From an uncultured Gammaproteobacteria bacterium (lineage in GTDB: Bacteria > Patescibacteriota > Microgenomatia > UBA1406 > HO2-37-13b), in NCBI GenBank assembly GCA_964413645.1, contig CAYPSA010000003.1:19328-83327 (forward strand): a stretch of 64,000 bases of DNA, in the 5' to 3' direction. Below the pieces are notes generated by a model. The model saw nothing but the letters and a program-made list of their open reading frames with translations. It was not told the DNA's origin and made no database searches. Of this stretch, positions 919 through 59,450 are shown one piece after another. The position numbers and the translations under genes are program-made. Numbering within the stretch: position 1 is the stretch's first letter; every line of letters begins with the position of its first letter.

Positions 919-1002
919 TGCCAGGGGAGGGACTTGAACCCTCACCTCATTGCTGAGACACGGTTCTGAACCGTGCGCGTATGCCAATTCCGCCACCCTG
1001 GC
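919..1002 (-). tRNA. tRNA-Leu (anticodon CAG), class II with long variable arm; CCA not encoded
   Basis: The reverse complement reads GCCAGGG-TG-GCGGAATTGGCATACGC-G-CACGG-TTCAGAA-CCGTG-TCTCAGCAATGAGGT-GAGGG-TTCAAGT-CCCTC-CCCTGGC-A. All four stems pair and the anticodon loop is TT-CAG-AA. Confidence 0.9.
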
Positions 1003-1026
1003 TTAATTATATATTATACTAGACAC

Positions 1027-1569
1027 ATGAGACTGCTTATTGGTCTAGGAAATCCGGGGGAAAAATATGAGAAAACGCGACATAATGTAGGCGTTATGCT
1101 AGTGGAAAGGGCGGGGGAGATTCTCCTGCCTGCCGGCAGGCAGGTCGGTTCCGTTCAGAATGACAAGGGTAACGCTCAAAATGACAAGATTAATTGGAAA
1201 GCCGTGAAATTAAAATGTTTTATGAATGATTCTGGTATAGAAGTTCGACAAGTAATGAATTTTTATAAAGTTGAACCAAAAGATCTGATTATCGTTCACG
1301 ATGATTTAGATATAAAGCTCGGTGAATTCAAAATTCAACATGGAAAAGGTCCGTATGGGCATAATGGGATTCTTTCAATCGAGCGCGAATTGGGAACAAA
1401 AGAGTTTACTCGAGTTCGAATTGGTATTGAAAATCGAGATCCGGAAAATAAGGTTGCAGGAGTAGAATACACGCTTCAAAATTTCACGTCCGAAGAGTTA
1501 ATTATTATCGAGAAAACTTTTGATCAGATTTTTTCCCAACTGCCCCCAATTCTTTCAGTTTCCACATAA
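1027..1569 (+). CDS. pth: peptidyl-tRNA hydrolase
   Basis: The N-terminus MRLLIGLGNPGEKYEKTRHNVG is present, followed by FMNDSG, VHDDLD, HGKGPYGHNG and RIGI motifs in the canonical Pth order. The start is moved to the ATG at 1027. Residues about 33-55 are encoded by a dispersed repeat (see findings). Confidence 0.9.
   Translation: MRLLIGLGNPGEKYEKTRHNVGVMLVERAGEILLPAGRQVGSVQNDKGNAQNDKINWKAVKLKCFMNDSGIEVRQVMNFYKVEPKDLIIVHDDLDIKLGEFKIQHGKGPYGHNGILSIERELGTKEFTRVRIGIENRDPENKVAGVEYTLQNFTSEELIIIEKTFDQIFSQLPPILSVST
1125..1188. repeat. dispersed repeat copy (20-bp palindrome plus two CAGAATGACAAG-type modules) inside the pth coding sequence
   Basis: CCTGCCTGCCGGCAGGCAGG lies at 1125-1144, followed by ttcagaatgacaag and ctcaaaatgacaag. 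The same modules occur in intergenic copies at 3156, 13839, 19331 and 32990. Confidence 0.85.
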
Positions 1570-1789
1570 ATAGTGCGCCTTTTTTACGGGCGCCTGAATC
1601 AATTACGAATCGTAATGCTTGTTCTAAAATAGGGCGGGGGACCGTTTTTGACATTTTAATATACAAACTTTTATGTTTTTCATCTTCAAGCTTTGATGCT
1701 AAATGAACGCCGAATGATTGAAATTCCCGAGAAACATATTTGTCAGTTTTAGGGTTGTACTTGGTAAGAACCGTTTTTATTGAGTCCAT
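1505..1789 (-). CDS. hypothetical protein (94 aa)
   Basis: An intact ORF with no recognised motif. Its 3' end overlaps the convergent pth 3' end by 65 nt, so one of the two models may be shorter. Confidence 0.4.
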   Translation of the reverse strand: MDSIKTVLTKYNPKTDKYVSREFQSFGVHLASKLEDEKHKSLYIKMSKTVPRPILEQALRFVIDSGARKKGALFMWKLKELGAVGKKSDQKFSR

Positions 1790-1810
1790 ACAGGTATTAT
1801 ACAGAGTTTA

Positions 1811-1912
1811 TCCGAGATTTCTCCTCACTGTCTTAAGACAGATCGTCGAAATGACAAACAAATATGTCATTTCGAGCGCCTGCCTGCTTGCAGGCAGGTA
1901 GCGAGAAATCTC
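1811..1912. repeat. dispersed repeat cluster (GAGATTTCTC / CGAAATGACA / GTCATTTCGAGC / variant palindrome / GCGAGAAATCTC)
   Basis: The cluster reads tccgagatttctcctcactgtc...gtcgaaatgaca...gtcatttcgagcgCCTGCCTGCttGCAGGCAGGtagcgagaaatctc. An almost identical left half is found at 12599-12644. Confidence 0.85.
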
Positions 1913-1995
1913 AGCTCACTCATATATCGAGATTTTAAGGTAAGAAATCTTGGATAGTTATTGACTCCCAGTAGCAGTTCATGTAATACTAATGT

Positions 1996-3144
1996 ATGCG
2001 CAAACATAGAAAAGGGCACATCAAGAAAAAGCCTGCACATAAGATGCTTGTTTACTCCCTTGTGCTCGTGCTATTTGCCGCTACGCTTTGGTATGGAAAT
2101 CATTCCAGAAGTGTTTTGGGTATTGCTACAGAAACCGGAATTGACACAGGTGGAGTGTTTATTCCTCCCGAGGAGCCGTTGCCAACTTCTCAAATAGGTC
2201 AGGTAACCATTGCTCCAACTATTCCTCTTCAGCCAACCAACGTGATAATTCCTACCGATGTATTGTTGCCTACAACTGCCCCAACCAGTCCCCCTGTTCC
2301 TACACCGGTTCTAGTAGTACCCGATGAGCCAGTATATGTTGAAATAATTGATGAACCAGGAGATGGATTGAAGACGGGGGGTGGATTGGTAGATATTGGA
2401 AAAGATCCGGTAACAGTTGTTATTGAAAACACACCATCGGGTGTGACGACTACAACAGAGAAATTAACTCCACAAACTAAATTAGTAGATTCATCTGCGG
2501 CAATAATTACTTCGCAAACAGGTGGAAATACGACCGTTTCGCAAAAAAATATTTCAACACTTGATCGACTGTTTTCATTTTTCACCGGGAATTCTGCTGA
2601 CCTAACTGATTCTGCAGCAAAAGGTTCTGTGCAAAAAAAATCAGCATATTCTCAGGTGTATATTTCAAGCGATGGTGGTACTACGTTTGTAACAGATCCG
2701 ACTCAAACTATTTCAGCGCTTGATGAATGGCTTGGATTTAATGGAATTAAGCTTGAATCACTGGGTGATGGATCATTTCGTATTACTCAGGGCGATGTGG
2801 TCGCGATCATGAGGCCAAAAGACAGTAAAATTGCAGTAAATTTGGCACGGATGGAATTATTAGTGAATACCTCGGTCGGATTTCAGCCACTTTCGTACTT
2901 GCCTAAACGAGTTACTGAATATTTGGCAGATTCGGGAATTATTTCACGGCTGAGTGCGCCTATTGAGGTTGTTGAAACACCCACGGAAATGCATTTACAC
3001 ATGAAAACCATTTCGACACAATATTTGGCTGCATTTATTCCAATATCAGTAAAAGTAGAGTATTGTATGTCAGCTACGACTCTTAATCCATGTGGTAAGA
3101 AACAAGGCTTCCTGTCAAGAGCACTGGATTACTTATCTTTATAA
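1996..3144 (+). CDS. hypothetical membrane-anchored protein with a Pro/Thr-rich linker
   Basis: It has a basic N-terminus followed by one TM helix (LVYSLVLVLFAATLWY), then a P/T/V-rich stretch and a non-repetitive C-terminal domain. No known motif was recognised. A possible promoter TTGACT-17nt-TAATAC lies at 1961-1989. Confidence 0.6.
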   Translation: MRKHRKGHIKKKPAHKMLVYSLVLVLFAATLWYGNHSRSVLGIATETGIDTGGVFIPPEEPLPTSQIGQVTIAPTIPLQPTNVIIPTDVLLPTTAPTSPPVPTPVLVVPDEPVYVEIIDEPGDGLKTGGGLVDIGKDPVTVVIENTPSGVTTTTEKLTPQTKLVDSSAAIITSQTGGNTTVSQKNISTLDRLFSFFTGNSADLTDSAAKGSVQKKSAYSQVYISSDGGTTFVTDPTQTISALDEWLGFNGIKLESLGDGSFRITQGDVVAIMRPKDSKIAVNLARMELLVNTSVGFQPLSYLPKRVTEYLADSGIISRLSAPIEVVETPTEMHLHMKTISTQYLAAFIPISVKVEYCMSATTLNPCGKKQGFLSRALDYLSL

Positions 3145-3146
3145 CA

Positions 3147-3238
3147 CCCAGATTCCCTGCCTGCCGGCAGGCAGGCTCACTGCGTTCAGAATGACAAGGG
3201 TGCTCGCTCAGAATGACAATGTAATTTAGAATGACAGG
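3147..3238. repeat. dispersed repeat cluster (palindrome plus three GAATGACA modules)
   Basis: The cluster reads cagattcCCTGCCTGCCGGCAGGCAGGctcactgcgttcagaatgacaagg...gctcagaatgacaatg...ttagaatgacagg. Confidence 0.85.
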
Positions 3239-3242
3239 AGCT

Positions 3243-6200
3243 TTATCTCGTTTTTCTTCCGAAGCTATCTACGATAATTGATCCATCTCGTGCATCTACT
3301 ACGCCATCTTCATTGATGTCCGCTTTGCCCGTGTAGTCCTGTGTATTAACGGCAACAGCATATAAAGCAAAGTCTATACCATTTACCACTCCATCGCCGT
3401 TAATATCGGCTCCTAGACGGTATTCACAGAATGAAAGCATATGATTTTTACTCGCTTCAGTAGGATTGGTGGTGTCGGTTGTAGATTCAACCACATGTAG
3501 CCAGCATGCTGTTTCTTCCTCCGCTCCTAATAGTTGCAAGAAATGAGATTCCGCTCGTGTGCGGACTTCATCAAATGGAGCGGCTAGGATATCAATTAAA
3601 AATTGATTATTATATTTTGGCAAGAATGAAATGCGATAATCTTCTTCTTGAGCAATAACCATGTTTCCTTCAGGATCTGTTGAAAGGGGACTATCCGTAA
3701 TGTCGTTAATATATATACCGTTCAAAATTAATTTACCTTCTTCGGTTTTTTCATAATCTGGGAACGTATCTGCATATCCAATCGGAGCAACACCCTGCGG
3801 AGCAATAGCTCGGCTTGGTGGGAATGGGGGAATGACTTGACGACCTGATGAATGTGCGGGGTCGATTCCTTCAAAGTCACCAGGACACTCGTCTAAATCA
3901 GTTTCCCATGAAACGATTGGGTTGTTTGGCTTGAACTTAGAAACTTCCCATGTGACAACGCTTGCATTACCATTGGCGACAGTTTCCAAATCACCATCGT
4001 CGGTTCGGTCGCCGTTTGGACCAAAAGGATCTTGCTGGCAGTTATCGTCTGTCGGTTCACAACGACTCATCTGCCATCTAATTTGAGCATCATCACCTTT
4101 TTTATTGTGGTAACAAACCGATACACGTTCGACATTTCCCTTAGAATCGCGATCTACGTTACCCGCACATGAGAAAGAGCCGGGAAGTTCGGCACGAATA
4201 TTGCGCTTGCCATCATTATTTGCCACCGACCAACATAAATTGCTATCGCCGCCTTCTTCGAATTCATCAACATCGTACAGGTTAAGTGCGAATGTGTTAA
4301 ATTCTGCAGTGTTTGATCCACTTTCACGAGTAAATTCTGTTTGGCCAGGTTTGGAAATACATTCAGGAACTTCATTGTCACGCGTGTAAAGATTGACAGA
4401 ATAAGGAACGTCGCGTAACCATGTTGATTTGGTTCGGGCGTTTTTACGGCTACTGTCTGTTGGGCTATTGTATTTTAAATTACATCGAGCATCTGTTTCG
4501 CTGGGATCAATGTCGTGTAATGAGCAGACCACAATTCCATCATCGGTAGGTTCTACAATATCTAAGTCGTATGCATCTAATTTACAATCAACATCCTCAG
4601 GTTGATTCCAGCGAAGCTTAACGGATGAAGCAGCTATGTCGTCGCGCTCAATCTTTTCAATAGTTGGTGCGCATCGATCGGTAAGCGTACATTTGGCTGC
4701 TGGTTTGCGTTCTACGACCCATCCATAGGTGTATTCTTGGCCACAACCGATCGGAAGCTTATCAATTCTTCGAGCTTCATTTTGGCTAGCGTTTTCATCA
4801 ATTTCAGTACATTTTCCTTTATGGTCGCATTTTGCAACAATGTTGAACTTATCTTTCGGATAGTACAAGTACACACTAGCGATATCGAACGGTTTTTTAC
4901 GTAAATCGTATGAATCTGCAGGAGTGTCGTTGCTGTCGACACAGCAATATTTTTTACCGGTCAAGTCGCATCCATCAGGTCCGCATGGTTGTAGACGGCC
5001 ATCTTCATCAAATGCTGCGCGATGAAACACGTCATCGCCAAATTTTTTAAGTCGTTTGTCATTTGTGGTGCTCCATTTTTCAGCATCGTCTGCAACCTCA
5101 GGGAACAGTGTATCTTCGCCGTTTTCTCGGATTTTTACATATGCCACTGGATTGAAAATACAGCGAGGCGCATCTGTTGGTTCGACCGTAGGAACGGGTC
5201 CACATTCACTTTGAGGAACCGTGATTGTAAAATCGCGTTTTCCGGATGCTACAACCGGATCTGATTCATGTTCAGAATAGTAAGCCGTTAAATCGTTTTT
5301 CATCGAACTGTCGGGTACCTGATACTCGGCACCTTCTTCAAAACTTTGATTTCGACTATCGGTGACTAAGCGGTAATTAAATACGTACAGATCGTTTTCA
5401 GGATCGCTTTCATCTTCATTTACCCAAATACGATCATCGGCAGGTTTGTCTTCAGATAAATCTGTTTGAACTAAATCTTTACAATCTGCGCGTGTTCCAC
5501 CTTTTTCACAGCGTGACACCCGCATACTTTCGGGTTCTTTGCAACTTCGTACGGTAATTTTTCCTGAAATGTTTGGTTTATCATTGCCTGTTGGTTTTGG
5601 AGGAGTTTTCGTTGGCTCACACATTATTGTTCGAACAATGTGGATATTGCAATCTCTAAATTCAGAAAAAATATCGTCTGCCGTTGCTCCATCGGTCCAG
5701 TTTTGAACAACTGCGGTGTATTCTCCAAATACCTTACGAACTCCCAAACCACTTTGAACGCCACCTTCTGCACTGCTACCGCATGAGCGAAGCGCGGCAA
5801 CATATAGCGTTTCTGCATCGTCGGTAGAGATATCGGCGCCTATTGCACCCTCAATATATGGTTCTACGAAAAGTCGTGCACGTTCTCGGGTTCCAATAGC
5901 GTCGGTAATTATGGTTTCAACTACCGGATGTACCCATAACGAGACCGAACGCATAATAACTCCGTCGCGTCCGCCTTCCATGCCGGCATTTACACTATCA
6001 AATGAAATATCGGCATATCGTTCTGGATTCTTTTTAACTGCGTTTACAATTGCTTCTCGAATAATCTTTTTAACTTCACTATCGATGGTTTGGGTAAGCG
6101 AGCGTACTGAGCCCAGTGGAATAATAGTAAATAAATCGGTTGGTGTTAAATGCTTGTAGTACAAATTTTCTGGATCTTTTACGATTCGTTTGTCGGCATC

Positions 6201-7352
6201 TGAAGGCCCTGCAGCTTGGTCATCAATTAGACAGTCAAGGGCAGAAGTTGGCCACCCACCACTACTATCGCTTGGACAATCAGCATACGCATGTTTTTTA
6301 GCCCAGGTAGAATTTATGAATCGGGTACGATCATTATCAAGCCAGCCCGGTGCGTTTTGTACACAGGCTGCATCGGTTGGTTTTGGCGTAATCGTCAACC
6401 GTACACATCCTCCAGTATTGGTGGGGTTACTACATGGCCTTCTAGTTGGTTGTACTGTTGGAACAACTTTTCCGACGCATCGTGGATCAATAGGAAATCC
6501 AATCGACATACAAACGGTATCTTTCGAGCAGTTTGTTTCTCCCCGAGGACAGGCCATCGTTATGCACTGTAACCCTTTTTCACAAACATTTCCTGGCTGA
6601 GCACATGGTTTTCCACACGCGCCTGGATTTACAGGACCAGTAGTTGGTCTTGTGGTTGGTCCTGTAGTTGGTATGACGGTTATTCCTCCAGTTGGTCGTA
6701 TCGTAGGACGAGTAGTTGGTCCTTCTATACTCGGTCGTGTGGTAGGCCCACTCGTAACCGATGGAACGATCGATGGTTGTACGGTAGGATTTGACGGTGG
6801 GCAAATACCATTCTTATTTACTTTAAATCTTCTAAAATTTGGCCATCGACCTTGGCGGTTACTATATAAGTGTAAATAGACATCAACACATACATCGGTG
6901 AGCGGTTGGCTTACGTTGGAAACTAAACTGAAATTTCGAGCTGCCGTTGCATTTTTATTCGATAATATTGCGTCACCTTCAAAGTCAGGCCTAATACAGG
7001 GGGCAGGGTAATCGCCGGATCCGCCGTTAAATGCTTGTGCGTATACATTAGAAATTACACGTTTCCCAGGAGGATCTTCCGATGCCCACAGAGTTGTTTT
7101 TTCAATACCGCTTCCTAAGCCCGCACCAAAACAGAGTCCTCCGGTAATGGTAAATCGAGTAAGGCTCGGATCGACCGTGACATTAAGTGTTGTTTTTTCT
7201 TCTGTGCGTTCAATTCGAGGAACGGGTGCATACGCATCGCTTCGTAACGTTTTGCTTCCGGCTCCTAGCAAGCTTCCAAATGTAATAACAAGTGCGGAAA
7301 TAATTAAAACAGTCGATAAAATTTCACCGGAATTACGCTTGGCAGAGTACAT
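3243..7352 (-). CDS. giant (1369 aa) Cys-rich surface protein with an N-terminal hydrophobic anchor, an FN3-like module and a C-terminal dockerin
   Basis: The N-terminus is KRNSGEILSTVLIISALVITFGSLLG. There are P/T linkers and many Cys residues. An FN3-like segment reads SSVKLRWNQPEDV...YSVNLYTRDNE. The C-terminus carries two EF-hand-like dockerin repeats: GADINGDGVVNGIDFALYAVAV and ADINEDGVVDARDGSIIVDSF. Confidence 0.8.
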   Translation of the reverse strand: MYSAKRNSGEILSTVLIISALVITFGSLLGAGSKTLRSDAYAPVPRIERTEEKTTLNVTVDPSLTRFTITGGLCFGAGLGSGIEKTTLWASEDPPGKRVISNVYAQAFNGGSGDYPAPCIRPDFEGDAILSNKNATAARNFSLVSNVSQPLTDVCVDVYLHLYSNRQGRWPNFRRFKVNKNGICPPSNPTVQPSIVPSVTSGPTTRPSIEGPTTRPTIRPTGGITVIPTTGPTTRPTTGPVNPGACGKPCAQPGNVCEKGLQCITMACPRGETNCSKDTVCMSIGFPIDPRCVGKVVPTVQPTRRPCSNPTNTGGCVRLTITPKPTDAACVQNAPGWLDNDRTRFINSTWAKKHAYADCPSDSSGGWPTSALDCLIDDQAAGPSDADKRIVKDPENLYYKHLTPTDLFTIIPLGSVRSLTQTIDSEVKKIIREAIVNAVKKNPERYADISFDSVNAGMEGGRDGVIMRSVSLWVHPVVETIITDAIGTRERARLFVEPYIEGAIGADISTDDAETLYVAALRSCGSSAEGGVQSGLGVRKVFGEYTAVVQNWTDGATADDIFSEFRDCNIHIVRTIMCEPTKTPPKPTGNDKPNISGKITVRSCKEPESMRVSRCEKGGTRADCKDLVQTDLSEDKPADDRIWVNEDESDPENDLYVFNYRLVTDSRNQSFEEGAEYQVPDSSMKNDLTAYYSEHESDPVVASGKRDFTITVPQSECGPVPTVEPTDAPRCIFNPVAYVKIRENGEDTLFPEVADDAEKWSTTNDKRLKKFGDDVFHRAAFDEDGRLQPCGPDGCDLTGKKYCCVDSNDTPADSYDLRKKPFDIASVYLYYPKDKFNIVAKCDHKGKCTEIDENASQNEARRIDKLPIGCGQEYTYGWVVERKPAAKCTLTDRCAPTIEKIERDDIAASSVKLRWNQPEDVDCKLDAYDLDIVEPTDDGIVVCSLHDIDPSETDARCNLKYNSPTDSSRKNARTKSTWLRDVPYSVNLYTRDNEVPECISKPGQTEFTRESGSNTAEFNTFALNLYDVDEFEEGGDSNLCWSVANNDGKRNIRAELPGSFSCAGNVDRDSKGNVERVSVCYHNKKGDDAQIRWQMSRCEPTDDNCQQDPFGPNGDRTDDGDLETVANGNASVVTWEVSKFKPNNPIVSWETDLDECPGDFEGIDPAHSSGRQVIPPFPPSRAIAPQGVAPIGYADTFPDYEKTEEGKLILNGIYINDITDSPLSTDPEGNMVIAQEEDYRISFLPKYNNQFLIDILAAPFDEVRTRAESHFLQLLGAEEETACWLHVVESTTDTTNPTEASKNHMLSFCEYRLGADINGDGVVNGIDFALYAVAVNTQDYTGKADINEDGVVDARDGSIIVDSFGRKTR

Positions 7353-7392: not shown

Positions 7393-7486
7393 ATGTCATT
7401 TGCACTACCTTTGTCATTCCGAACAGAGTGAGGAATCTCAGAATAATCATCAACACCTAGATTCTTCGCTGCGCTCAGAATGACAA
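7393..7486. repeat. dispersed repeat cluster
   Basis: The cluster reads gtcatttgcac...gtcattccgaacagagtgaggaatctcag...agattcttcgctgcgctcagaatgacaa. Confidence 0.8.
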
Positions 7487-10400
7487 TTACTTACATGCAT
7501 TCTGGCCAATGAAGCTCAAGAATAGGGAAGTGTCCGAAGCATTTACAGTTCCATTGCCATCCAAGTCACGCAGACCCGTTGCATCGGCACTCGTTACTTG
7601 ACAATCACGATTAGTATCCGCAGTCTTAAGCGGGGAAAGAACCGTTGTGCTTACTGAATTATTCGCAGCTGCTGTAATGTTAAATTGCAATCCATTGCTG
7701 CCCGTTATTAATTGGGGCGTGCATTGTTTACTAGTTCCATTTGTGTAATTAATTACACAGCTTAATCGTCGAGTGGTACTTAGAACAGAGAACGTTGGTT
7801 TGAATTTGGTATTTGCACCAGCTGCAAGCGCTACAGAAACTGTATTTGACGCACATTTATTTGCCGAGTCGCATGAGGCGATAGAGACGGATTTAATGCT
7901 TTCGTTAGATTTATTAGTTATCGCTACTGTAGATAATAATGATGAATGGTCAGTATAGTCATCGCCTACAGCAGAATAGTAAATATAGCCTCCATGACCT
8001 ATAAATCCACAAGGTCCACTATCAGTATCACACGACCCACTAAGCCCTGTTGTTCCATTTACTCTTTTACCTGACTCATCTATCAAATTAACATATACAT
8101 AATATTTTTCTATATTTGGATTCAATTTGAATACTTTAGTGAAATGGACTCCGTTTTGATTGCTTATAAGATTGGTTAAAAATTCTTCAGAACTTATAGC
8201 ACTGTTCTCAGAATTTTTTGCAAATCCTTCAAGACGGAAGGATAATTTGTACCCCTCATGTCCAGGTTTGATAAAATATTTCCCTTCAGTAGTGATTATT
8301 GATTTGTCAATCGGAAGTAAACACTTCGTCTGATTCTCAGATGCACCGCAGCTATATTTCGACTCATTATTCACTTCGCCTTTATTAATTCTGCAAAATC
8401 TCTCAGTACGTACACATTCCCGGTATTTCTCATTTCCCTTGGGTACTCCATACCACGTTCTTCTGTTAGATGGCTCAGGAGTTGGCTGGGTTCCATTAGG
8501 ATTTAAGGTAATACTCACATTCCAAACGCCTGTTTTAGTGTAGTCTTTTTTATTAACGGTAACTGCAGTAAAAGCCTTTTTTCTTTGTGTTTCTCCCTCA
8601 ATACTGTATTCAAGTTCGACCCCATATGTATATTCTTCTGCTTCTTTGTTGAAGTTGGGTATAGTGTACATAAATGTCCCATTCTCAAAATCAACATTAT
8701 GGATTTGCGCGTCCTTTATATCAGTGTCAGTATTGGTTTGATAAATCACTTTGAATGAGCCTTCATAAGGAGTAAGAGTTTTTTCACTTTCTACAGTAAT
8801 TCTGACTGTACCAGTCACGGTATTTTGGTTTCTTGGATCTGGCTGCTCTCCACCATTCTTAGGTGTGGGTTGTGGTTTATCCTCATTTCGAGGCTGTGAT
8901 GATTTAACTCCTGAGTCACCTTGGGCGCATGGAACTCCACTTCCAACAGATGTGCGTAGATTTTCATCAACCATATAACATTGGCCTTTTTTCAGCGTTA
9001 CTGATGTGTCACCATAAGTAGTATTTACGCCTGGTCCTGCGTTGCATTGTGAGAGTTTGTAAGGATTGCCGTCCTTGTCTTTTAGATCAACTGCTGAACA
9101 AAGAGCGCAATCATCTCTTTTTGGCATTACATCTATAGAATCGGTGTTAGAATCATTTCGGAGTCTAACGACTACTTCGTGTTTTTCATTACGTGGGGCC
9201 AAACAATCAAATCGTTTATCAGTAATGCTTTGTGCCCAGTCGTCGGTACCATTGTATCCGTGTCTACAATCACCATGACTCCACGCTCCCCAACATACAC
9301 CGGTAGAATTATTCACGAGCCAATCTAGTTGTTTAGTCATTACGGTGCCGCCTACGGGTTTATCCGTTGGCTCTGGTTTATCTTCGTCACCTCCATTGTC
9401 ACGTGTAGGGCGTGAAAATCTACCAATTCCATTGCTTCCCGCACATAATTCCATTGATCCAGGAATTTCTTTAATGGCATATACATTTGCTACATAGTTA
9501 TGTCCTCGGATAAAATCGCCCTCACCATTTGCATACGATGAATCAACTCGACACTCTGCTTTTGTTTTGGAAATCTTATCGCATGTCTTAACTACTAAAG
9601 CAGGGGTTTCTGAAATATCTACTAAGTCGATTCGATAGTGGTCGCCTGCAACACCCGCACTGAATGGACATAAAGCGTCAGGGGCGTCCCATGTAACTTC
9701 TACACGACTGCTTGATTTTAGTTTGGTCTTAACGTTTTTAGGAGTGCAAGGAACAACATTTTCTGGAGATCGCATTACACATTGGCTGGGATTGTTATCG
9801 GGGAGTTTTTTCACAACCCATCCGTACTTTGATACATTGGTATCGCAGTCGAAATTGAATCCATCTACTGTGCTTCCATATTGATCAAGCGGTCGACTGG
9901 AATTCTTTCCAGGGCCTTCATTTGGAAATGGACATCCTTTTGAACCAGTGCAAGCAATTTTATTTACAATTTCCCATTTAGAGGTATCTATGTATAGGTT
10001 GACCTGTGCTTTATCACCTTTCATATAAAGTGCATTTGTATCTGTTGGTCGGAATGATAAAGTATCAGTCTTAAATGTATACTTTGATGTTCTTTCGCCA
10101 TTTACCATTTCTCCATAGTTCTTAAATAATGTGGTAGGTTTTAATGGTTGCTTGTCGTTTGCAAGACCCCACTTATTTACATCCCCCATTTGTGATAGGG
10201 GAACGGGCAAGTTGGTTGCCTCGTCGATAACTACGGCTGTTGCGCTATATTTACAAATACCAGGAGTAGGAATAGTCGTTGGCGCTTCGGATGGTTTTAC
10301 GCTTGGTGAAACCGGTGGGCACACAATGTCATTTTTTGGAACTTCATAATTAATGATTGCTTCACTTTGACTTGATGGAATTGTTGCATATGCGCGCAAA

Positions 10401-11881
10401 TTTCCAATTTGAGAAGGAGGGAATCCAACACGTCCGGCTTCTCGGATTAATCCATTAGATGTATATTGTGCAAATGCTTGCATGTTTTCATATAGTGCAT
10501 TCTTAACGACTGATTCAAGACCTCCATTTGCTCCGGGAGCTTGAAGATGCTCGTAAGAGTAAAGCCATTTATTAGGATTCGTTGGATCTTGTCCGATAAA
10601 TTTTACTGTTGTAGCTGTATCAATACATCGTGTAGGATTGTTTTTTTCACAAATGATCGTACTTACTGCGTCGGGTTTCACACATGAATTCACAATAATG
10701 TCTCCTTTGATTTTAGCTTGAACTGGTTCACCGGTAACTGGCGTACATGCCCGGCATGAATCGAGCCCACGTGGAGGACCATTATTGGTGTTACTACAGT
10801 AAACTCGTGGTGCTTGGCCAGGTGCAGCGTTGTCGCTTGAACATAAGAATGCTTTTCCCTCTGAAAGACAACTATCACATGAAGGTTGCGGTGTGACGGT
10901 TGATTGTGGAGGTGTTGGCGTTGAAGTTGGATTACATTTTGGATTGGTACTTATACATACGCCGATTTGTAATGGATCACTCTTTTCGTGCAGACATGCG
11001 TACCCACGTGGGCACGGATTAGCTTTTGAACAGGTTATATCATTTCTACATTCTCCAACAGGTGTGACTGATGGACATGGCTTTTTTGGATCTGGACATC
11101 GTGGTTTATCAGTAGGTCGCAATTCGATAGTGACATATCCTGACGGAACTACGATATTATCTGTTGGCTTAGCAGTTGGTACTCTAAATGTAGGTTCATT
11201 TGTAGCAGACGGCTGTGTTGATGGAGTAACTGGAGTTGGTGTTGGACCACAATCAACTCCTCGTTGACCCAAATATCGGTGCCATGCGGCCATGTCCATT
11301 TCAATTGGATCGCGTGTAACAAAACTTGATGTTGAACTTACGAATAGTCCTGAACACAAATCTTTAGAATATGGTGCTTGTAATTTAAGTGTGAAGTCCC
11401 ATGCTCTCCAATTTGCTTTTCCCACATTTGGACTATCACAATATGGTCGTGAAGTTTGTGGAGCAATGTATTTAACGGTTCTTCCTTCATGGACAATACA
11501 ATCATCTTTGGTGTCGGCATTAGTATTGTCACAAGCTTTTTGGGGGTAACCTCGATTAGGATCTTGAGGAGTATGTACCCAAAACTGTTGAAGTTGTGAA
11601 GGAATGGTGGTACCAGTAAAACAGAGTGAACCTCGGATTAATGTGTATCCAGAATTAGGTTGACCAGGAATTCGATCTTTCTCTTCAAAGGTAGGTCCTT
11701 TGTAAAAATGAGCTCGATAAGTATTGTCGTATGCAAAACTTCCGAGCTTCAACACATTTTCTTGAACTAATCGTTGTGAACCTAGGAATGTACCCGCAGC
11801 CATTAACGCCAAAGCCGCCACCGTAAAAAGCGTGGCAACTTCTCCGCGTTGCTTCCAATTTTTTAATTGCGATATATTCAT
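7487..11881 (-). CDS. giant (1464 aa) Cys-rich surface protein, paralog of 3243..7352, with a degenerate C-terminal dockerin
   Basis: The N-terminus is KQRGEVATLFTVAALALMAAGTFLG. Segments shared with the neighbouring giant include IRGSLCF versus ITGGLCF and KYGWVVKKLP versus TYGWVVERKP. An FN3-like segment reads SSRVEVTWDAPD...YVANVYAIKE. The C-terminus is ADTNRDCQVTSADATGLRDLDGNGTVNASDTSLFLSFIG. Its start overlaps the upstream stop (ATGA). Confidence 0.8.
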   Translation of the reverse strand: MNISQLKNWKQRGEVATLFTVAALALMAAGTFLGSQRLVQENVLKLGSFAYDNTYRAHFYKGPTFEEKDRIPGQPNSGYTLIRGSLCFTGTTIPSQLQQFWVHTPQDPNRGYPQKACDNTNADTKDDCIVHEGRTVKYIAPQTSRPYCDSPNVGKANWRAWDFTLKLQAPYSKDLCSGLFVSSTSSFVTRDPIEMDMAAWHRYLGQRGVDCGPTPTPVTPSTQPSATNEPTFRVPTAKPTDNIVVPSGYVTIELRPTDKPRCPDPKKPCPSVTPVGECRNDITCSKANPCPRGYACLHEKSDPLQIGVCISTNPKCNPTSTPTPPQSTVTPQPSCDSCLSEGKAFLCSSDNAAPGQAPRVYCSNTNNGPPRGLDSCRACTPVTGEPVQAKIKGDIIVNSCVKPDAVSTIICEKNNPTRCIDTATTVKFIGQDPTNPNKWLYSYEHLQAPGANGGLESVVKNALYENMQAFAQYTSNGLIREAGRVGFPPSQIGNLRAYATIPSSQSEAIINYEVPKNDIVCPPVSPSVKPSEAPTTIPTPGICKYSATAVVIDEATNLPVPLSQMGDVNKWGLANDKQPLKPTTLFKNYGEMVNGERTSKYTFKTDTLSFRPTDTNALYMKGDKAQVNLYIDTSKWEIVNKIACTGSKGCPFPNEGPGKNSSRPLDQYGSTVDGFNFDCDTNVSKYGWVVKKLPDNNPSQCVMRSPENVVPCTPKNVKTKLKSSSRVEVTWDAPDALCPFSAGVAGDHYRIDLVDISETPALVVKTCDKISKTKAECRVDSSYANGEGDFIRGHNYVANVYAIKEIPGSMELCAGSNGIGRFSRPTRDNGGDEDKPEPTDKPVGGTVMTKQLDWLVNNSTGVCWGAWSHGDCRHGYNGTDDWAQSITDKRFDCLAPRNEKHEVVVRLRNDSNTDSIDVMPKRDDCALCSAVDLKDKDGNPYKLSQCNAGPGVNTTYGDTSVTLKKGQCYMVDENLRTSVGSGVPCAQGDSGVKSSQPRNEDKPQPTPKNGGEQPDPRNQNTVTGTVRITVESEKTLTPYEGSFKVIYQTNTDTDIKDAQIHNVDFENGTFMYTIPNFNKEAEEYTYGVELEYSIEGETQRKKAFTAVTVNKKDYTKTGVWNVSITLNPNGTQPTPEPSNRRTWYGVPKGNEKYRECVRTERFCRINKGEVNNESKYSCGASENQTKCLLPIDKSIITTEGKYFIKPGHEGYKLSFRLEGFAKNSENSAISSEEFLTNLISNQNGVHFTKVFKLNPNIEKYYVYVNLIDESGKRVNGTTGLSGSCDTDSGPCGFIGHGGYIYYSAVGDDYTDHSSLLSTVAITNKSNESIKSVSIASCDSANKCASNTVSVALAAGANTKFKPTFSVLSTTRRLSCVINYTNGTSKQCTPQLITGSNGLQFNITAAANNSVSTTVLSPLKTADTNRDCQVTSADATGLRDLDGNGTVNASDTSLFLSFIGQNACK

Positions 11882-12474
11882 TGTATAGTGTAAATTCCTC
11901 CGACTGTGCTACCAAGCGTATTTTCGCCATTGATCGCAGTAAGTGTTTTGGTATTGTCAAAATCAATGATGACTGATTTAGCGCCCGCTTTTGGCGTCAT
12001 GGTAAAGCTAAAAACCACACCTTCTTTTCGATCGGTGGGACTTTTTTCAGATAGGGAACCATTATATGTAATCTTTCCATTCTCATTTTTCATACCAATA
12101 ACTTGTGGGAATACCGTTCCATTAGTAAGTGCAGAGATGGTAACCCTTTTTGGATCATATGAAAGTACCACATCTGCTGCTGTTACTGGTAACTTTGAAA
12201 GCATAACTTCTACCGTTACCGCTTCTCCTGCTTTCACTGTTTGCTTTGCAGGTGAAAGAGCAATTGTGGTTGATGGTTTGATATTCTCGATAGCACTTGT
12301 TGTTGGAGTGGTTGTTGTAGGTTCAGAATCAGATTTCTTGGTTACGTTTGCTCCGACAATAATACTTATAATGAAGAGTCCGAAAATAATGGCAATAACG
12401 GCCATTTTTCGGTTTTGATCGAGCTTATTGAACTCGGAAAGGTCTTGTTTGATCGTGCTTGATAGATTTGTCAT
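11878..12474 (-). CDS. membrane-anchored cohesin-domain protein
   Basis: It has one N-terminal TM helix (MAVIAIIFGLFIISIIVGA) and a T/P linker. A single beta-sandwich-type module follows with cohesin-like signatures (VTVEVMLSKLPVTAADVVLSYDPKRVTISAL and GVVFSFTMTPKAGAKSVIIDF). It is the first gene of the operon with the two giants. Confidence 0.65.
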   Translation of the reverse strand: MTNLSSTIKQDLSEFNKLDQNRKMAVIAIIFGLFIISIIVGANVTKKSDSEPTTTTPTTSAIENIKPSTTIALSPAKQTVKAGEAVTVEVMLSKLPVTAADVVLSYDPKRVTISALTNGTVFPQVIGMKNENGKITYNGSLSEKSPTDRKEGVVFSFTMTPKAGAKSVIIDFDNTKTLTAINGENTLGSTVGGIYTIQ

Positions 12475-12556
12475 ATTTATTGATTGTAGATAAAGACTTC
12501 AATCGATGTCAAGTGGGAAAAATACTATATAAACGACGAGGAAGCTGGAATTATTT

Positions 12557-12644
12557 GTCATTTCGAAGAAGCGAAGCGACTAGGAAATATCAATCTATCC
12601 GAGATTTCTCCTCACTGTCAAATTGACGGCTCGTCGAAATGACA
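12557..12644. repeat. dispersed repeat cluster
   Basis: The cluster reads gtcatttcgaagaagcgaagcgactaggaaat...tccgagatttctcctcactgtcaaattgacggctcgtcgaaatgaca. The right half is near-identical to 1811-1856. Confidence 0.85.
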
Positions 12645-12737
12645 TACTATCTGAAATTAATCGTTTATCGGTAGGTAAGTCATCTTGGAGAGGGATTTTG
12701 TGCCTAATATGCGGTACCCCCGTATCGTATAAGTCAT

Positions 12738-12780
12738 GTCATCCTGAGCGTTCTGCCGGCTGGCGGAGAAGGGTCTGCGC
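12738..12780. repeat. dispersed repeat copy (GTCATCCTGAGCG variant with imperfect palindrome)
   Basis: The copy reads gtcatcctgagcgttctgccggctggcggagaagggtctgcgc. Confidence 0.6.
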
Positions 12781-13790: not shown

Positions 13791-13805
13791 CTCTCTTTAA
13801 GCATT

Positions 13806-13866
13806 GTCATTCTGATCCCGAGCGAAGTTAAGGGAGAACCTGCCTGCCGGCAGGCAGGGAATCTCC
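13806..13866. repeat. dispersed repeat copy (GTCATTCTGA...palindrome...GGAATCTCC)
   Basis: The copy reads gtcattctgatcccgagcgaagttaagggagaaCCTGCCTGCCGGCAGGCAGGgaatctcc. Confidence 0.85.
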
Positions 13867-18470: not shown

Positions 18471-18474
18471 GGGC

Positions 18475-18545
18475 GGGGATTTCTCGCCTTCGGCTCGAAA
18501 TGACACGGATAGCTCAGAATGACAAAGGTACTTTAGGATGACAGG
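18475..18545. repeat. dispersed repeat cluster
   Basis: The cluster reads ggggatttctcgccttcggctcgaaatgacacgg...gctcagaatgacaaagg...ttaggatgacagg. Confidence 0.85.
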
Positions 18546-19253: not shown

Positions 19254-19396
19254 TGTACGACTGATAAACACTATTATATTAACAAATATTAAGGTTAATT
19301 GTCAATAGTAAATGTGGGCGGAGGGCGAGGCCTGCCTGCCGGCAGGCAGGGAGTCGAACCCTGACCCTTACGGGTCGATACGTTTATCAGTCGTAC
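19254..19396. other. 143-bp element bounded by 15-bp perfect inverted repeats, containing the family palindrome and a tRNA-like T-arm
   Basis: GTACGACTGATAAAC at 19254-19268 is mirrored by GTTTATCAGTCGTAC at 19382-19396. The interior holds CCTGCCTGCCGGCAGGCAGG (19331-19350). On the minus strand it also holds GACCC-GTAA-GGGTC followed by CAGGG-TTCGACT-CCCTG. No complete cloverleaf could be built. Confidence 0.4.
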
Positions 19397-19479
19397 TCCG
19401 AAACCGTTCGGAAACGCTCTCCAACCAACAGGCATACTATCAGTCAATTCTTAAATTCTTATTAAATTTACCAAGGTAC

Positions 19480-20547: not shown

Positions 20548-21096
20548 ATGGAATCTCAGGGAAAAATGTTGGTGGCATTGTCGGTTTTAGCGGTATTAAC
20601 CGGATTTTCTGCTATTGGCTACGTTGCGGTTCAGCAAAATGCGAATGTGGTTTCAAAAGCAGCTCCATCTGATTCAATTACCGATGCCGCAGCGGCAATG
20701 GCGTGTACTACCGATCAGTATTGTATAGATTTAGCAATGTCTTTTGGCTTCTGTATGGCGGGCTATGTTTGCCCGAAGAGCGGAGACTCGATATCATGTG
20801 TAAAAGGAATGTGCACTTTTTCCCTAACCGATTCAAAGTTCGTAAAGCTGCCAAAGTCTCTGGATGATACAAAAAACTGCTCGACTCGTACGGAAGGTGA
20901 TTATGATTGTAGTGGCGCCGTTGACTGTGCTGATTTGTCTCTTTTTGTCAGTGAATTTACCGGTCGAACTTCAACCAAAACTGCAGATATTTCTGGCGAC
21001 GGTAGAGTTTCACTTATCGATTTTGAACATGTCCGTGCACGAGTATTTGCTGGGAGTAGCTCGCGAGATGGCACCCGAGCCACGTGTCAACTATGA
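20548..21096 (+). CDS. membrane-anchored Cys-rich protein with a C-terminal dockerin
   Basis: It has an N-terminal TM helix (MLVALSVLAVLTGFSAIGYVAV). The dockerin pair is GDYDCSGAVDCADLSLFVSEF and ADISGDGRVSLIDFEHVRARVF. Confidence 0.65.
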   Translation: MESQGKMLVALSVLAVLTGFSAIGYVAVQQNANVVSKAAPSDSITDAAAAMACTTDQYCIDLAMSFGFCMAGYVCPKSGDSISCVKGMCTFSLTDSKFVKLPKSLDDTKNCSTRTEGDYDCSGAVDCADLSLFVSEFTGRTSTKTADISGDGRVSLIDFEHVRARVFAGSSSRDGTRATCQL

Positions 21097-29967: not shown

Positions 29968-30501
29968 TTAGAAAGTAACGAGCTCTCCATCTTCTTCGCG
30001 GTATAATGTGTGTCCCTGCTCAAGTACGCGCTTCGTAAACAGTATTCCATTTAAATGGTCCATTTCGTGCTCAATAATCGTAGCTTCAAAGCCAGAAAAC
30101 GTTTCGGTTTGGGTTTTATTTTCCAAATTTGTATACTCCAAAACAACTTTTTTTGAGCGAACTACTTTCCCCCAAATGCGGGGAATTGACAGACATCCTT
30201 CTAGGCGCGAGGTTTCATCACTTTTCGGCTTTTTGGCAGTTTCGCTCTGCGCGACCTGTGTAGATGGGACAATCTTTGGATTAATAAACGTTTTTACGGG
30301 TGCTTTTTTATCTTTTTTGATAATAAACAGCCGAATTCCTTCATTAATTTGTGGTGCCGCAAGCCCGACTCCTTCCGGATCGCGTTGAGCTAGTAACGTT
30401 ATAACCATGTCATCTACCAGTTTTTTAATTTTTGCATCAATTTTTTTAACCGGCTTTGATGGTGTGGCTAAAACGGTATGTGGGGCATGAACTATTTTCA
30501 T
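29968..30501 (-). CDS. def: peptide deformylase
   Basis: All three PDF motifs are present: GVGLAAPQI, EGCLSIP and HEMDHLNG. Confidence 0.95.
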   Translation of the reverse strand: MKIVHAPHTVLATPSKPVKKIDAKIKKLVDDMVITLLAQRDPEGVGLAAPQINEGIRLFIIKKDKKAPVKTFINPKIVPSTQVAQSETAKKPKSDETSRLEGCLSIPRIWGKVVRSKKVVLEYTNLENKTQTETFSGFEATIIEHEMDHLNGILFTKRVLEQGHTLYREEDGELVTF

Positions 30502-36953: not shown

Positions 36954-37571
36954 GGGGTTCTCCTTCATTATTGGGCAGTGCTATAAAAGCAACTGCAACG
37001 GGCGGGGGGGTCTTGTACAGTCCTGTTCGAGCGACTGATTGTTTCCGAAGAAAATAATACTGTCTGCAGTATGATATCGTCAGGTCGACGAGTACCGGTG
37101 CAAACGTTTAACTGAGTTTTAAACTCAGGTTGTTTTCCTGCAGTGCGAAAAATTGAACTGTCCGTCTTCCGATATTTTCCGACTCACTCCTTTCTTGTTT
37201 TTGAAAATGGGGAACCTCAGAACTTAGGATGTATATTTCATAAATCCTCAGATTCCCCATCTTCACTCTTAATATAGTTAATTTAGTAACCTTTTCCACA
37301 AAAGGAGATCCTTAGGCTTGCGCTGTTAGGATACAGATTTTTGTGGAAGTAAACCCAATTGTAAAAGTGCTTATTTGGAAACTATGAGTGGAAAATAAAT
37401 CTCCACCATCTTTCCCAAAAAATCCAACATTTTACCTGACTTGGGCCGGATGCAAAACCCGGCTTTTCGGGTAGAAAATGTAACCTATAGTTTATCAAAA
37501 AAAGGTGTAATTGTCAAGTTGGGACGCATTTACTTGTACTCATTATTATTTTGTATGCTAAAATACTTTTT

Positions 37572-44118: not shown

Positions 44119-44167
44119 GAGATCTCTCACTGCGTTCGAGATGACATGGGCAGTGGTTCAGAATGAC
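44119..44167. repeat. dispersed repeat copy
   Basis: The copy reads gagatctctcactgcgttcgagatgacatgggcagtggttcagaatgac. Confidence 0.7.
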
Positions 44168-56280: not shown

Positions 56281-56357
56281 ACAGTGTTTTGCAACATAGC
56301 ATATCAGTATAGGGGAAATGTAGGAAATGTCAATGTGGGAATATTACTTCAAAACCT

Positions 56358-56409
56358 GTCATTCTGAGCTCACCCGTCATCACGAACTTCGCCCAGAGGG
56401 CGAGCACCC
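56358..56409. repeat. dispersed repeat copy
   Basis: The copy reads gtcattctgagctcacccgtcatcacgaacttcgcccagagggcgagcaccc. Confidence 0.7.
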
Positions 56410-58912: not shown

Positions 58913-59450
58913 TAAACACGTGTAAAAGCCCTCCGAGTACTCGTTCTGGGGAGTACCGCCAAAACGCAATAATTACGAAATTGTAGAACGACCAACTTAT
59001 TAAAAGAGAACAGTAATTTGCATGCCAAACATTCTTCTCCTCCTTTTCATTTGTCGTAGAATATTCACATAACCGACTACTTGTATATAAGGCGTATTTG
59101 TAGCCAGGGAAACAAGGATCTACAACGTCGTAAATTGTATCTTTTACGACGTTTCGTCTTGACGTCTTCAGGGAAGTGCTATTTTTGCAGTTCATTAGTT
59201 ATCTGCTATTAATGTATTAATTTCTCCCCTTGCGCCGCTGGCCAAATTAGCCTATTTGCTCCCTAACGGTATTAATCCAAAATTTTGGGTCTCCCCCTAT
59301 TATAGGCCATTTGGGGAAGTACTAATATGTTGATATAACAAGCCAAACTGCCCTGTTCCCTGGCATTTGTTGGGGTCGGGGACTTGCATTTTCAGGCCTG
59401 TCTGCCGACAGGCAGGCACAAAATAGGCATAAATTTGCACCTTGCAAGGT

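Follow-up and report, generated by a model that had tools for sequence, protein, structure and literature searches.

The gene pth, which encodes peptidyl-tRNA hydrolase (Pth), carries a composite of short repeats within its open reading frame (ORF) in the 64,000-nucleotide (nt) stretch of contig CAYPSA010000003.1 analysed here (hereafter the window), from an uncultured Microgenomates-like bacterium of the Candidate Phyla Radiation (CPR). We consider it quite probable that this segment, at 1117-1194, is a copy of a selfish or neutral modular hairpin repeat that is tolerated in-frame in a permissive linker of the enzyme. A reading of the DNA made from its letters alone (the sequence-only reading) had proposed that a dispersed, mostly intergenic repeat is translated in-frame in pth, and this was borne out: an exact 20-nt palindrome, which we call PAL1, and two modules ending in ...AATGACA make up the insert and lie in the ORF. 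The gene and the parts of the insert are as follows.

1027-1569, + strand: pth (peptidyl-tRNA hydrolase, 180 amino acids (aa)), host gene of the repeat
1117-1194, + strand: composite repeat insert of 78 nt, read as E31-N56 (EILLPAGRQVGSVQNDKGNAQNDKIN)
1125-1144, unstranded: PAL1 core CCTGCCTGCCGGCAGGCAGG, an exact match, read as (L)LPAGRQ(V), hairpin in the RNA fold
1153-1167, + strand: 3' arm of module 1 (GTTCAGAATGACAAG), closing the frame GAGATTC...GAATGACA around PAL1
1168-1188, + strand: module 2 (GGTAACGCTCAAAATGACAAG), also in the ortholog P0002 (locus L004) with one difference

The insert and its host gene

Across the insert the pth ORF reads ...ERAGEILLPAGRQVGSVQNDKGNAQNDKINWKAVKLKCFMNDSG, and over a longer stretch through the repeat ...TRHNVGVMLVERAGEILLPAGRQVGSVQNDKGNAQNDKINWKAVKLKCFMNDSG..., with CAGAATGACAAG-type modules at 1156-1167 and 1177-1188. 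Alignment of pth 1118-1187 with an intergenic composite at 3149-3219 gave 62 identical bases of 68 aligned, with the modules in the same order, and it is this alignment that sets the limits of the repeat at approximately 1117-1194; the interval 1125-1188 proposed earlier lies inside the repeat but falls short of its ends. The insert has a GC content of 0.50, versus 0.37 for the remainder of pth. Three of its six frames are free of stops, and PAL1 alone is open in all phases; the earlier suggestion that the palindrome yields the same peptide on either strand holds where it is entered in the same phase, but not in general, all three phases being open.

A divergent tRNA-Leu(CAG) gene (918-1002) lies 25 nt from the ATG at 1027, which is the true start of pth. 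The pth product matched Pfam PF01195 over residues 3-173 (4e-45, 154 bits against a cut-off of 27) and 36 Pth/CRS2 sequences of the PDB (E down to 7e-30). In alignments of 18 and 120 sequences N9, H19, N67 and D92 were invariant and N113 nearly so; they correspond to the catalytic and substrate-binding residues of Pth, Asn10, His20, Asn68, Asp93 and Asn114 in E. coli numbering. An AlphaFold2 model of the protein had a confident core, with a mean predicted local distance difference test (pLDDT) score of 89.8, and when compared with 57 PDB chains in Foldseek gave E values down to 8e-18 and template modelling (TM) scores of 0.7-0.84. The canonical Pth alpha/beta fold is present in the model, and strand beta2 is absent in the window's clade.

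As the sequence-only reading had placed it, the segment lies between the GLGNPG/TRHN block and the FMNxSG motif. Its 26 hydrophilic residues (31-56) constitute the whole linker from helix alpha1 to the next beta-strand, and in the model a helix at 18-33 is followed by no secondary structure until a strand at 57-61. Residues 34-56 are coil of low pLDDT, the mean of ten-residue blocks dropping from 95 to 67, 50 and 74, with residues 43-45 below 50. The repeat-encoded segment is predicted to be a disordered surface loop, in keeping with the surface position proposed for it earlier.

The essentiality of pth is established for E. coli. Outside the linker, the ratio of nonsynonymous to synonymous substitution rates (dN/dS) of the window gene was 0.05-0.11 against four orthologs, and against the repeat-bearing ortholog P0002 dS was 0.31 and dN/dS 0.11. 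Given that module 2 is common to the window Pth and P0002, the insert predates the split between them, and given the dS of 0.31 and dN/dS of 0.11 accumulated since that split, purifying selection has continued with the repeat inside. The window pth is thus an intact, constrained gene that contains the repeat. The order tRNA-Leu, pth, overlapping small ORF is kept in related contigs. This small ORF (1505-1789, - strand; 89-94 aa, without a Pfam match) is convergent with pth, overlaps its 3' end by ~65 nt, and was called as a gene in every related contig (L001-L007).

Turnover at the Pth linker and in a second host gene

The close relatives of the window Pth (P0001) come from independent samples, and differ as follows.

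P0001 (window), 180 aa: linker EILLPAGRQVGSVQNDKGNAQNDKIN
P0004 and P0005, 166 aa, ~86% identical over aligned positions: linker ...ERAGGALDAQQEGGAGWK..., without the repeat
P0002, 176 aa: linker ...VEIPLFARNDKGNAQNNKNSWK...
P0003, 180 aa: linker ...EEMLKQVQHDNVALNDKSGWK...
P0007, 165 aa: linker ...EEILKQVQDDQKARYK...
P0006 and P0008, 161 and 155 aa: short linkers

The absence of the repeat from P0004 and P0005 agrees with the lineage specificity that had been predicted for it, and at the DNA level the window pth is a net 42 nt longer than its counterparts in L002 and L007. In P0002 (L004) the first module of the linker (GAGATTCCTCTCTTCGCTCGGAATGACA) lacks PAL1 and the second is that of the window, the two copies of this second module being one base apart (GGTAACGCTCAAAATAACAAG versus ...ATGACAAG). 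The linkers of P0003 and P0007 contain a hairpin module unlike those of the window (GCTGAAACAAGTTCAGC); the copy in P0003 (L005), GAGATGCTGAAACAAGTTCAGCATGACA, is matched by a second, intergenic copy 670 nt away on the same contig, and the copy in P0007 (L245) is decayed. In a neighbour-joining tree from which the linker was left out, repeat-bearing and repeat-free Pth were interleaved. This interleaving implies that the one Pth linker was invaded or overwritten, by gain or replacement, at least three times among eight close lineages.

Over 120 homologs the spacer between RHN and FMN was bimodal, measuring either 16-32 aa or 39-56 aa. The long class, to which canonical Pth (39-56 aa) belongs, is marked by the canonical KF.AE...ILAKPQT hairpin; the clade of the window falls into the short class, with 25-30 aa in P0004-P0008, and in more distant CPR Pth the whole segment is absent, leaving a spacer of 16-25 aa. 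The repeat took the place of an 11-12-residue linker, with a net gain of 14 codons, in a Pth that was already without beta2. The idea that the repeat had replaced rather than lengthened this part of the protein is correct as to the replacement but not as to the length. The E. coli-like spacer (44 aa) on which that idea leaned is a coincidence, since the clade is short-spacer and the repeat adds 14 residues.

Other CPR Pth (P0012, P0024, P0027, P0031, P0034 and P0038) have low-complexity, repeat-like peptides at the same alpha1-beta2 position, examples being ...NNQIPKSKQVPNSFQ... and ...KMANGKWQMANGE..., and the linker hot spot may extend beyond the window's clade. An extra segment of ~45 nt with a perfect PAL1 separates a sigma-factor-like gene from tRNA-Leu(CAG) in the P0003 lineage (L005, 1297-1316), at a site that is without a spacer in the window; this is a further difference in the presence of PAL1 between close relatives.

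Only one other gene of the window hosts the repeat, and it encodes a GT-C-like membrane protein of 971 aa (30498-33413, - strand). The occurrence of LPAGRQ...QNDK in this unrelated protein had been noticed in the sequence-only reading and was confirmed; the ORF reads ...SHPDSLPAGRQVRVDSLPQNDKP..., with the palindrome in the same phase as in pth. Repeats are found in it at three places.

31979-32090, unstranded: in-frame module cluster (...LSFRAVGEKSQPSQLSEISHFVRNDT...)
32807-32833, unstranded: in-frame module (...SEISPRPQGGRYD...)
32954-33063, - strand: in-frame cluster of a hairpin module, PAL1 (32990-33009) and an AATGACA arm (AAVIPSETRNLGVTFSHPDSLPAGRQVRVDSLPQNDK)

Orthologs of the membrane protein (70-82% identity) vary at exactly these three loops, where the repeat peptides are present, absent or exchanged. 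At one orthologous site the flanks AGATTC...CCCTCAGAATGACAAA are shared but enclose PAL1 in the window and another perfect palindrome, PAL2 (TCCGCCAGCTGGCGGA), in L128 (1912-1927). Seven unrelated loci (L018, L022, L023, L039, L047, L115 and L117) also have PAL2 no more than 8 kb from PAL1, which suggests that the two belong to a set of palindromic cores travelling together. The window protein itself is without a Pfam match, and some of its homologs have PF11847 or PF09586; the matches to it are labelled Roizmanbacteria, Microgenomates or Patescibacteria by their sources.

The repeat family in the window and across genomes

PAL1 occurs exactly at 1125, 3156, 13839, 19331 and 32990 of the window, and with two mismatches at 1879 and 59397, a total of 7 matches compared with 0.00 expected from 100 shuffles. 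The CAGAATGACAAG-type modules (two mismatches at most) number 13 versus 5.9 expected, a count that no shuffle reached, and the most enriched 10-mers of the window are GTCATTCTGA, GTCATTTCGA and fragments of PAL1. With the exception of the copy at 19331, the window copies of PAL1 share the frame (G)AGATTC - PAL1 - 6 to 20 nt - TC(A/G)GAATGACA, the palindrome being nested between GAGATTC and GAATGACA. The modules GAGATTTC...GAAATGACA and GAGATTCC...GGAATGACA, which occur in varied orders and orientations and have ends of the form ...(A/G)AATGACA, make up 13 clusters; ten of these are intergenic and three coding, in a window with 87% coding sequence (binomial P = 3e-7). The following copies lie outside genes.

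1800-1928, unstranded: intergenic repeat cluster with the PAL1 variant CCTGCCTGCTTGCAGGCAGG at 1879-1898
3139-3240, + strand: intergenic composite, flanked by convergent genes, of PAL1 and three AATGACA modules; the window copy most closely related to the pth insert
7394-7487, unstranded: intergenic module cluster
12550-12746, unstranded: intergenic module cluster including a PAL2-like core (ctccgccagccggcag, ~12715-12735)
13803-13864, - strand: intergenic PAL1 module (13839-13858) with one AATGACA arm
18472-18545, + strand: intergenic cluster of three modules
19331-19423, - strand: tRNA-like sequence (19340-19423) with PAL1 (19331-19350) fused to its 3' end
44126-44167, + strand: intergenic module pair
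56355-56366, - strand: intergenic single module
59397-59416, unstranded: intergenic PAL1 variant CCTGTCTGCCGACAGGCAGG

The copies at 3156, 13839 and 19331 lie between ORFs, as had been stated; AATGACA modules had been reported at all three, but there are none near 19331. In L002 the orthologous copies of the intergenic clusters at 1879 (at 3812) and 3156 (~5080-5127) have 1 and 3 changes in PAL1, respectively. Because these copies have diverged, the repeat family is older than the insertion in pth, yet all five exact PAL1 copies of the window are perfect.

At 19331, PAL1 adjoins a degenerate, class-II-like tRNA sequence (19340-19423, - strand) whose 3' acceptor strand is the left half of the palindrome; it matched the Rfam tRNA clan at 30.1 bits (E 4e-4), below the gathering score, and was not called by ARAGORN. 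An inverted repeat, GTACGACTGATAAAC, flanks the site at 19256-19270 and 19385-19399. This tRNA-like sequence, which is upstream of rplJ, may be the remnant of a tRNA-linked cassette of the kind described below.

Exact PAL1 is present in at least 120 stretches when one genome per GTDB species is counted (L008-L127), and in 35 viral stretches of IMG/VR (L130-L164), while by our own estimate a 20-mer would be expected by chance less than once in 596 Gb. Among the hosts listed are many CPR groups, Bacteroidota (cultured isolates among them), Omnitrophota, Planctomycetota, Gamma- and Deltaproteobacteria, Bdellovibrionales, Thermodesulfovibrionales and Chloroflexi. The flanks of these copies are unrelated beyond position +/-1, with T at +1 in 41%. 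PAL1 is present or absent between orthologs and its copies are perfect within and between genomes. PAL1 does not generally form the tip of a longer palindrome peculiar to a species, an idea that we rejected because the flanks match each other at chance (~3 of 12 positions); a longer palindrome does hold inside the GAGATTC...GAATGACA frame of the window. Deep within long open frames we found 16 of 125 PAL1 copies, and all five hosts identified by Pfam read the palindrome as LPAGRQ: GatB (L111), a dTDP-glucose-dehydratase-like (RfbB-like) protein (L028), ScpB (L060), FtsK (L020) and a sortilin/BNR protein (L021). The two phases that contain Cys were never used in these five, and the phase in pth and the membrane protein is the same LPAGRQ phase. 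A literature search with sequence strings (PAL1 fragments, LPAGRQ, module strings) returned chance matches only, and we found no description of in-frame palindromic repeats in CPR bacteria in the searchable literature.

Small GIY-YIG ORFs (Pfam PF01541) begin 22-40 nt after the end of PAL1 in L044, L067, L113, L125 and the viral L161, and L084 carries a degenerate copy; among the PAL1 loci a strict GIY-YIG regular expression identified 2 ORFs, and phmmer with a hidden Markov model (HMM) 10. For a test in the reverse direction, 80 metagenome loci (L165-L244) were picked solely by similarity to the GIY-YIG proteins. Within 150 nt upstream of the ORF, PAL1 was found with three mismatches at most in 50 of ~79 loci (~40 of them exact), and two further loci had a variant with a one-base deletion. 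In 63 of ~79 loci a sequence of at least 14 nt was directly duplicated between the flanks on the two sides of the ORF, and in nearly all of these 63 it is the start of the tRNA gene 3' of the GIY-YIG ORF. ARAGORN placed the start of the intact tRNA no more than ~40 nt after the ORF in ~45 of 60 loci, the tRNAs being those for Arg, Leu, Lys, Phe, Met, Asn, Gly and Ser.

In the upstream copy, the initial ~14-25 nt of the tRNA are followed by exactly 20 nt of PAL1 and then by 3-18 more nt of the tRNA, and upstream flank is often included as well (duplications of 14-47 nt and longer). PAL1 is inserted at the junction of the D-loop with the 3' D-stem (GGTA-GAGC and GGCAGA-CGCG, the hyphen marking the point) or, in a few loci, at the junction of the 5' anticodon stem with the loop; in ~28 loci an exact 20-nt insertion separates the duplicated from the intact tRNA copy. 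The layout of the cassette is thus a tRNA 5' fragment split by PAL1, a GIY-YIG ORF of ~80 aa, and an intact tRNA 0-40 nt after the ORF, as in L044 (2106-2480) and L113 (3680-4061), and cassettes occur in tandem in L168, L182, L183 and L236. A search of the searchable literature found no description of a bacterial tRNA-linked GIY-YIG cassette. We regard as possible, and rather doubtful, the broader proposal that PAL1 is a 20-nt mobile micro-element derived from or mobilised by this undescribed family of tRNA-gene cassettes, whose solitary copies would spread into hairpin repeats, intergenic sequence and genes, becoming fixed in genes only in the LPAGRQ phase, pth being one such gene.

Interpretation and relation to known elements

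We propose that the repeat consists of a frame, GAGATTC...TCAGAATGACA, with PAL1 at its apex, followed by a second ...GCTCAAAATGACA module, and that a copy of it took over the short linker that joins helix alpha1 of Pth to the next beta-strand. The ribosome would read the insert in a stop-free frame, leaving the gene uninterrupted and the catalytic core untouched. The element would do nothing for Pth, surviving as an in-frame, stop-free sequence at the most permissive site of the enzyme, and would be neutral or slightly deleterious selfish DNA rather than an adaptation; intragenic copies are rare survivors. The linker is a hot spot, at which related lineages carry other modules or none, and two causes may contribute: sites permitted by selection would be few in a 150-aa enzyme, and, to judge from the clusters and core swaps, repeats may tend to insert into or recombine with repeats already in place. 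Cores, such as PAL1 and PAL2, would be exchanged between copies that share frame sequence, probably by ectopic recombination, gene conversion or re-insertion into an existing hairpin. PAL1 itself would not be native to the lineage, and would derive from or have been spread by the GIY-YIG/tRNA cassettes, the GIY-YIG nuclease family appearing the best candidate for its spread.

Several observations weigh against this account. The insert has an internal palindrome but neither terminal inverted repeats nor a target-site duplication at its flanks (GGGCGGGG and TGGAAAGCC). Pfam scans of 49 window ORFs found no transposase, nuclease or RAYT (the transposase associated with repetitive extragenic palindromic (REP) sequences), a regular expression and an HMM search found no GIY-YIG ORF in the window, and the link of GIY-YIG genes with PAL1 appears as an association in other genomes. 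Whether modules were gained or lost at the linker was judged by parsimony, and the tree is small. Low pLDDT falls short of proving disorder in the modelled loop, and both translation of the segment and activity of the window Pth are predicted. Finally, an 81-nt stretch of pth folded no better than shuffled sequence (z = -0.14), a score that argues neither for nor against an RNA role.

Given that PAL1 formed a GC hairpin in every RNA fold, with stems that stay paired in the variants, that the five window copies are perfect, against 3 changes in the orthologous intergenic copy of L002, and that the membrane-protein cluster at 32954-33063 folded better than shuffles (z = -3.8), the insert might be a cis-acting nucleic-acid element in pth (functioning in pausing, processing, protein binding or recombination), the coding of which is incidental. 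We consider this unlikely. Recent spread or gene conversion explains the perfect copies equally well, the pth genes of relatives are without the element, and the stretch in pth has the fold score given above. Moreover, Rfam at the gathering threshold returned only three tRNAs for the whole window, and a permissive scan of 1000-3300 returned no match; the repeats belong to no curated RNA family.

Also improbable, and if anything more so, is an exapted functional loop, in which the peptide would give Pth a new partner, localisation or tRNA contact and be kept by selection. That the insert has been retained since P0002 diverged (dS 0.31), with hardly any change in module 2, is consistent with such a role, as is the LPAGRQ phase in every well-supported PAL1-hosting protein. 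However, close relatives have no insert or unrelated peptides at the linker, distant CPR Pth dispense with the whole segment (spacer 16-25 aa), the segment is predicted to be unstructured, and the same DNA is mostly intergenic.

We think it very unlikely that a mis-assembly or sequencing artefact spliced the repeat into pth. The source is a metagenome-assembled genome in which the element is repeated at least five times in 64 kb, and an exact-sequence look-up of P0001 gave no gene record; but the 78-nt insert is below the usual short-read length (which we assume here), the pth sequence is in the correct frame on both sides, and both NCBI and Logan list the same 180-aa product. In addition, independent samples carry related modules at the same site, namely module 2 in L004 (ERR14790942) and others in L005, L006 (two runs) and L245. 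A decaying pseudogene whose work is done by another copy, perhaps beyond the 64 kb of the genome in view, is hardly credible given the intact ORF with all invariant residues, the dN/dS of 0.05-0.11 that includes the other repeat-bearing ortholog, and the conserved order of tRNA-Leu, pth and the small ORF.

Selfish or neutral repeats tolerated in coding sequences are a known phenomenon, of which the pth insert is an example from a new lineage and a new gene. Among the closest precedents are the Rickettsia palindromic elements (RPEs), which are ~100-150 bp long and restricted to one genus. These dispersed palindromes are found in-frame in genes that remain functional (Ogata et al. 2000, as cited in PMC3733652). 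The pth insert resembles them in its in-frame position in a constrained gene at a predicted permissive surface site and in having copies that are also intergenic, and differs in its 78-nt unit, its exchangeable modules, a core identical across phyla, and its CPR host; on size and host it lies outside the RPE family, from which we set it apart by description, without a direct comparison of consensus sequences.

REPs located within genes have been catalogued by Di Nocera et al. (2013, PMC3733652), who also note that distinct REPs occupy roughly one position in Xanthomonas recB; a GTAG or CGTC tetranucleotide tag at one end is the hallmark of REPs (PMC3733652). Like REPs and bacterial interspersed mosaic elements, the repeats described here are short, multicopy palindromes that are mostly extragenic, form mosaics and are occasionally intragenic. 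Unlike them, they have no GTAG/CGTC tag, the modules ending instead in (A/G)AATGACA, and are without a RAYT (a Y1 HUH transposase) among the Pfam-scanned window ORFs; REP families are species- or genus-specific, and PAL1 is not. The absence of terminal inverted repeats and target-site duplication distinguishes the pth insert from a miniature inverted-repeat transposable element.

Closer to PAL1 in size are the small dispersed repeats (SDRs) of Nostoc, which Elhai et al. (cited in PMC3116915) are said to have described in 2008 as 'very small mobile repeated elements', reportedly with hairpin units of ~20-27 nt and confined to a group of cyanobacteria. PAL1 is likewise a ~20-nt hairpin that has the appearance of a precise insertion, nests in other repeats and encodes nothing itself, but unlike the SDRs it occurs in many phyla and viral contigs and is strongly associated with GIY-YIG genes. 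The mobile GC clusters and double-hairpin elements of fungal mitochondria (e.g. the optional cluster in yeast var1) are GC-rich palindromes of AT-rich genomes that land in-frame and co-exist with homing-endonuclease genes. They share with the PAL1 repeats the spread of short GC-rich palindromes into coding regions in-frame, and differ in being organellar and unrelated in sequence; we know of no tRNA-duplication cassette described for them. For the cassette itself, the precedent is T4 SegB, a free-standing GIY-YIG homing endonuclease that cuts a tRNA gene region (PMC2330249). Both place a small GIY-YIG gene beside tRNA genes, but SegB is a phage protein with extra DNA-binding parts for which no palindrome or tRNA 5' duplication is described, whereas the ~80-aa cassette proteins, predicted nucleases, consist of the catalytic domain only.

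Apart from the repeats, the window encodes very large, secreted-looking cohesin/dockerin proteins (3243-7352, 11878-12474, 20548-21096, 24006-26861 and 59442-61868), one of the window's proteins of this kind being an M4 peptidase with both domains, which hints that a CPR bacterium has a cellulosome-like display system. An 803-aa ORF without a Pfam match (34557-36968, - strand) contains a long, GC-rich region (35544-36232) in which direct repeats recur with periods of 12 and 18 nt.

The value of this instance is raised by the repeated turnover at one linker, the exchangeable palindromic cores, and the identity of PAL1 across phyla together with its link to the GIY-YIG cassette. Even a minimal-genome CPR bacterium tolerates selfish repeats in a core gene of translation quality control, and one protein linker can serve as a repeated landing site. 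Such insertions could be used to map permissive sites in Pth, an antibacterial target, and to recognize repeat-derived insertions that inflate the apparent novelty of proteins in CPR genomes; LPAGRQ, QNDK, SASWR and KQVQHD are markers of translated repeats that should be masked in homology and domain-discovery work. The link of PAL1 to a GIY-YIG gene and a tRNA 5' duplication makes the mobiliser of RAYT-less repeats experimentally testable, and, were the proposal correct, it would provide an enzyme and a horizontal route, viruses included, for one class of transposase-less palindromic repeats.

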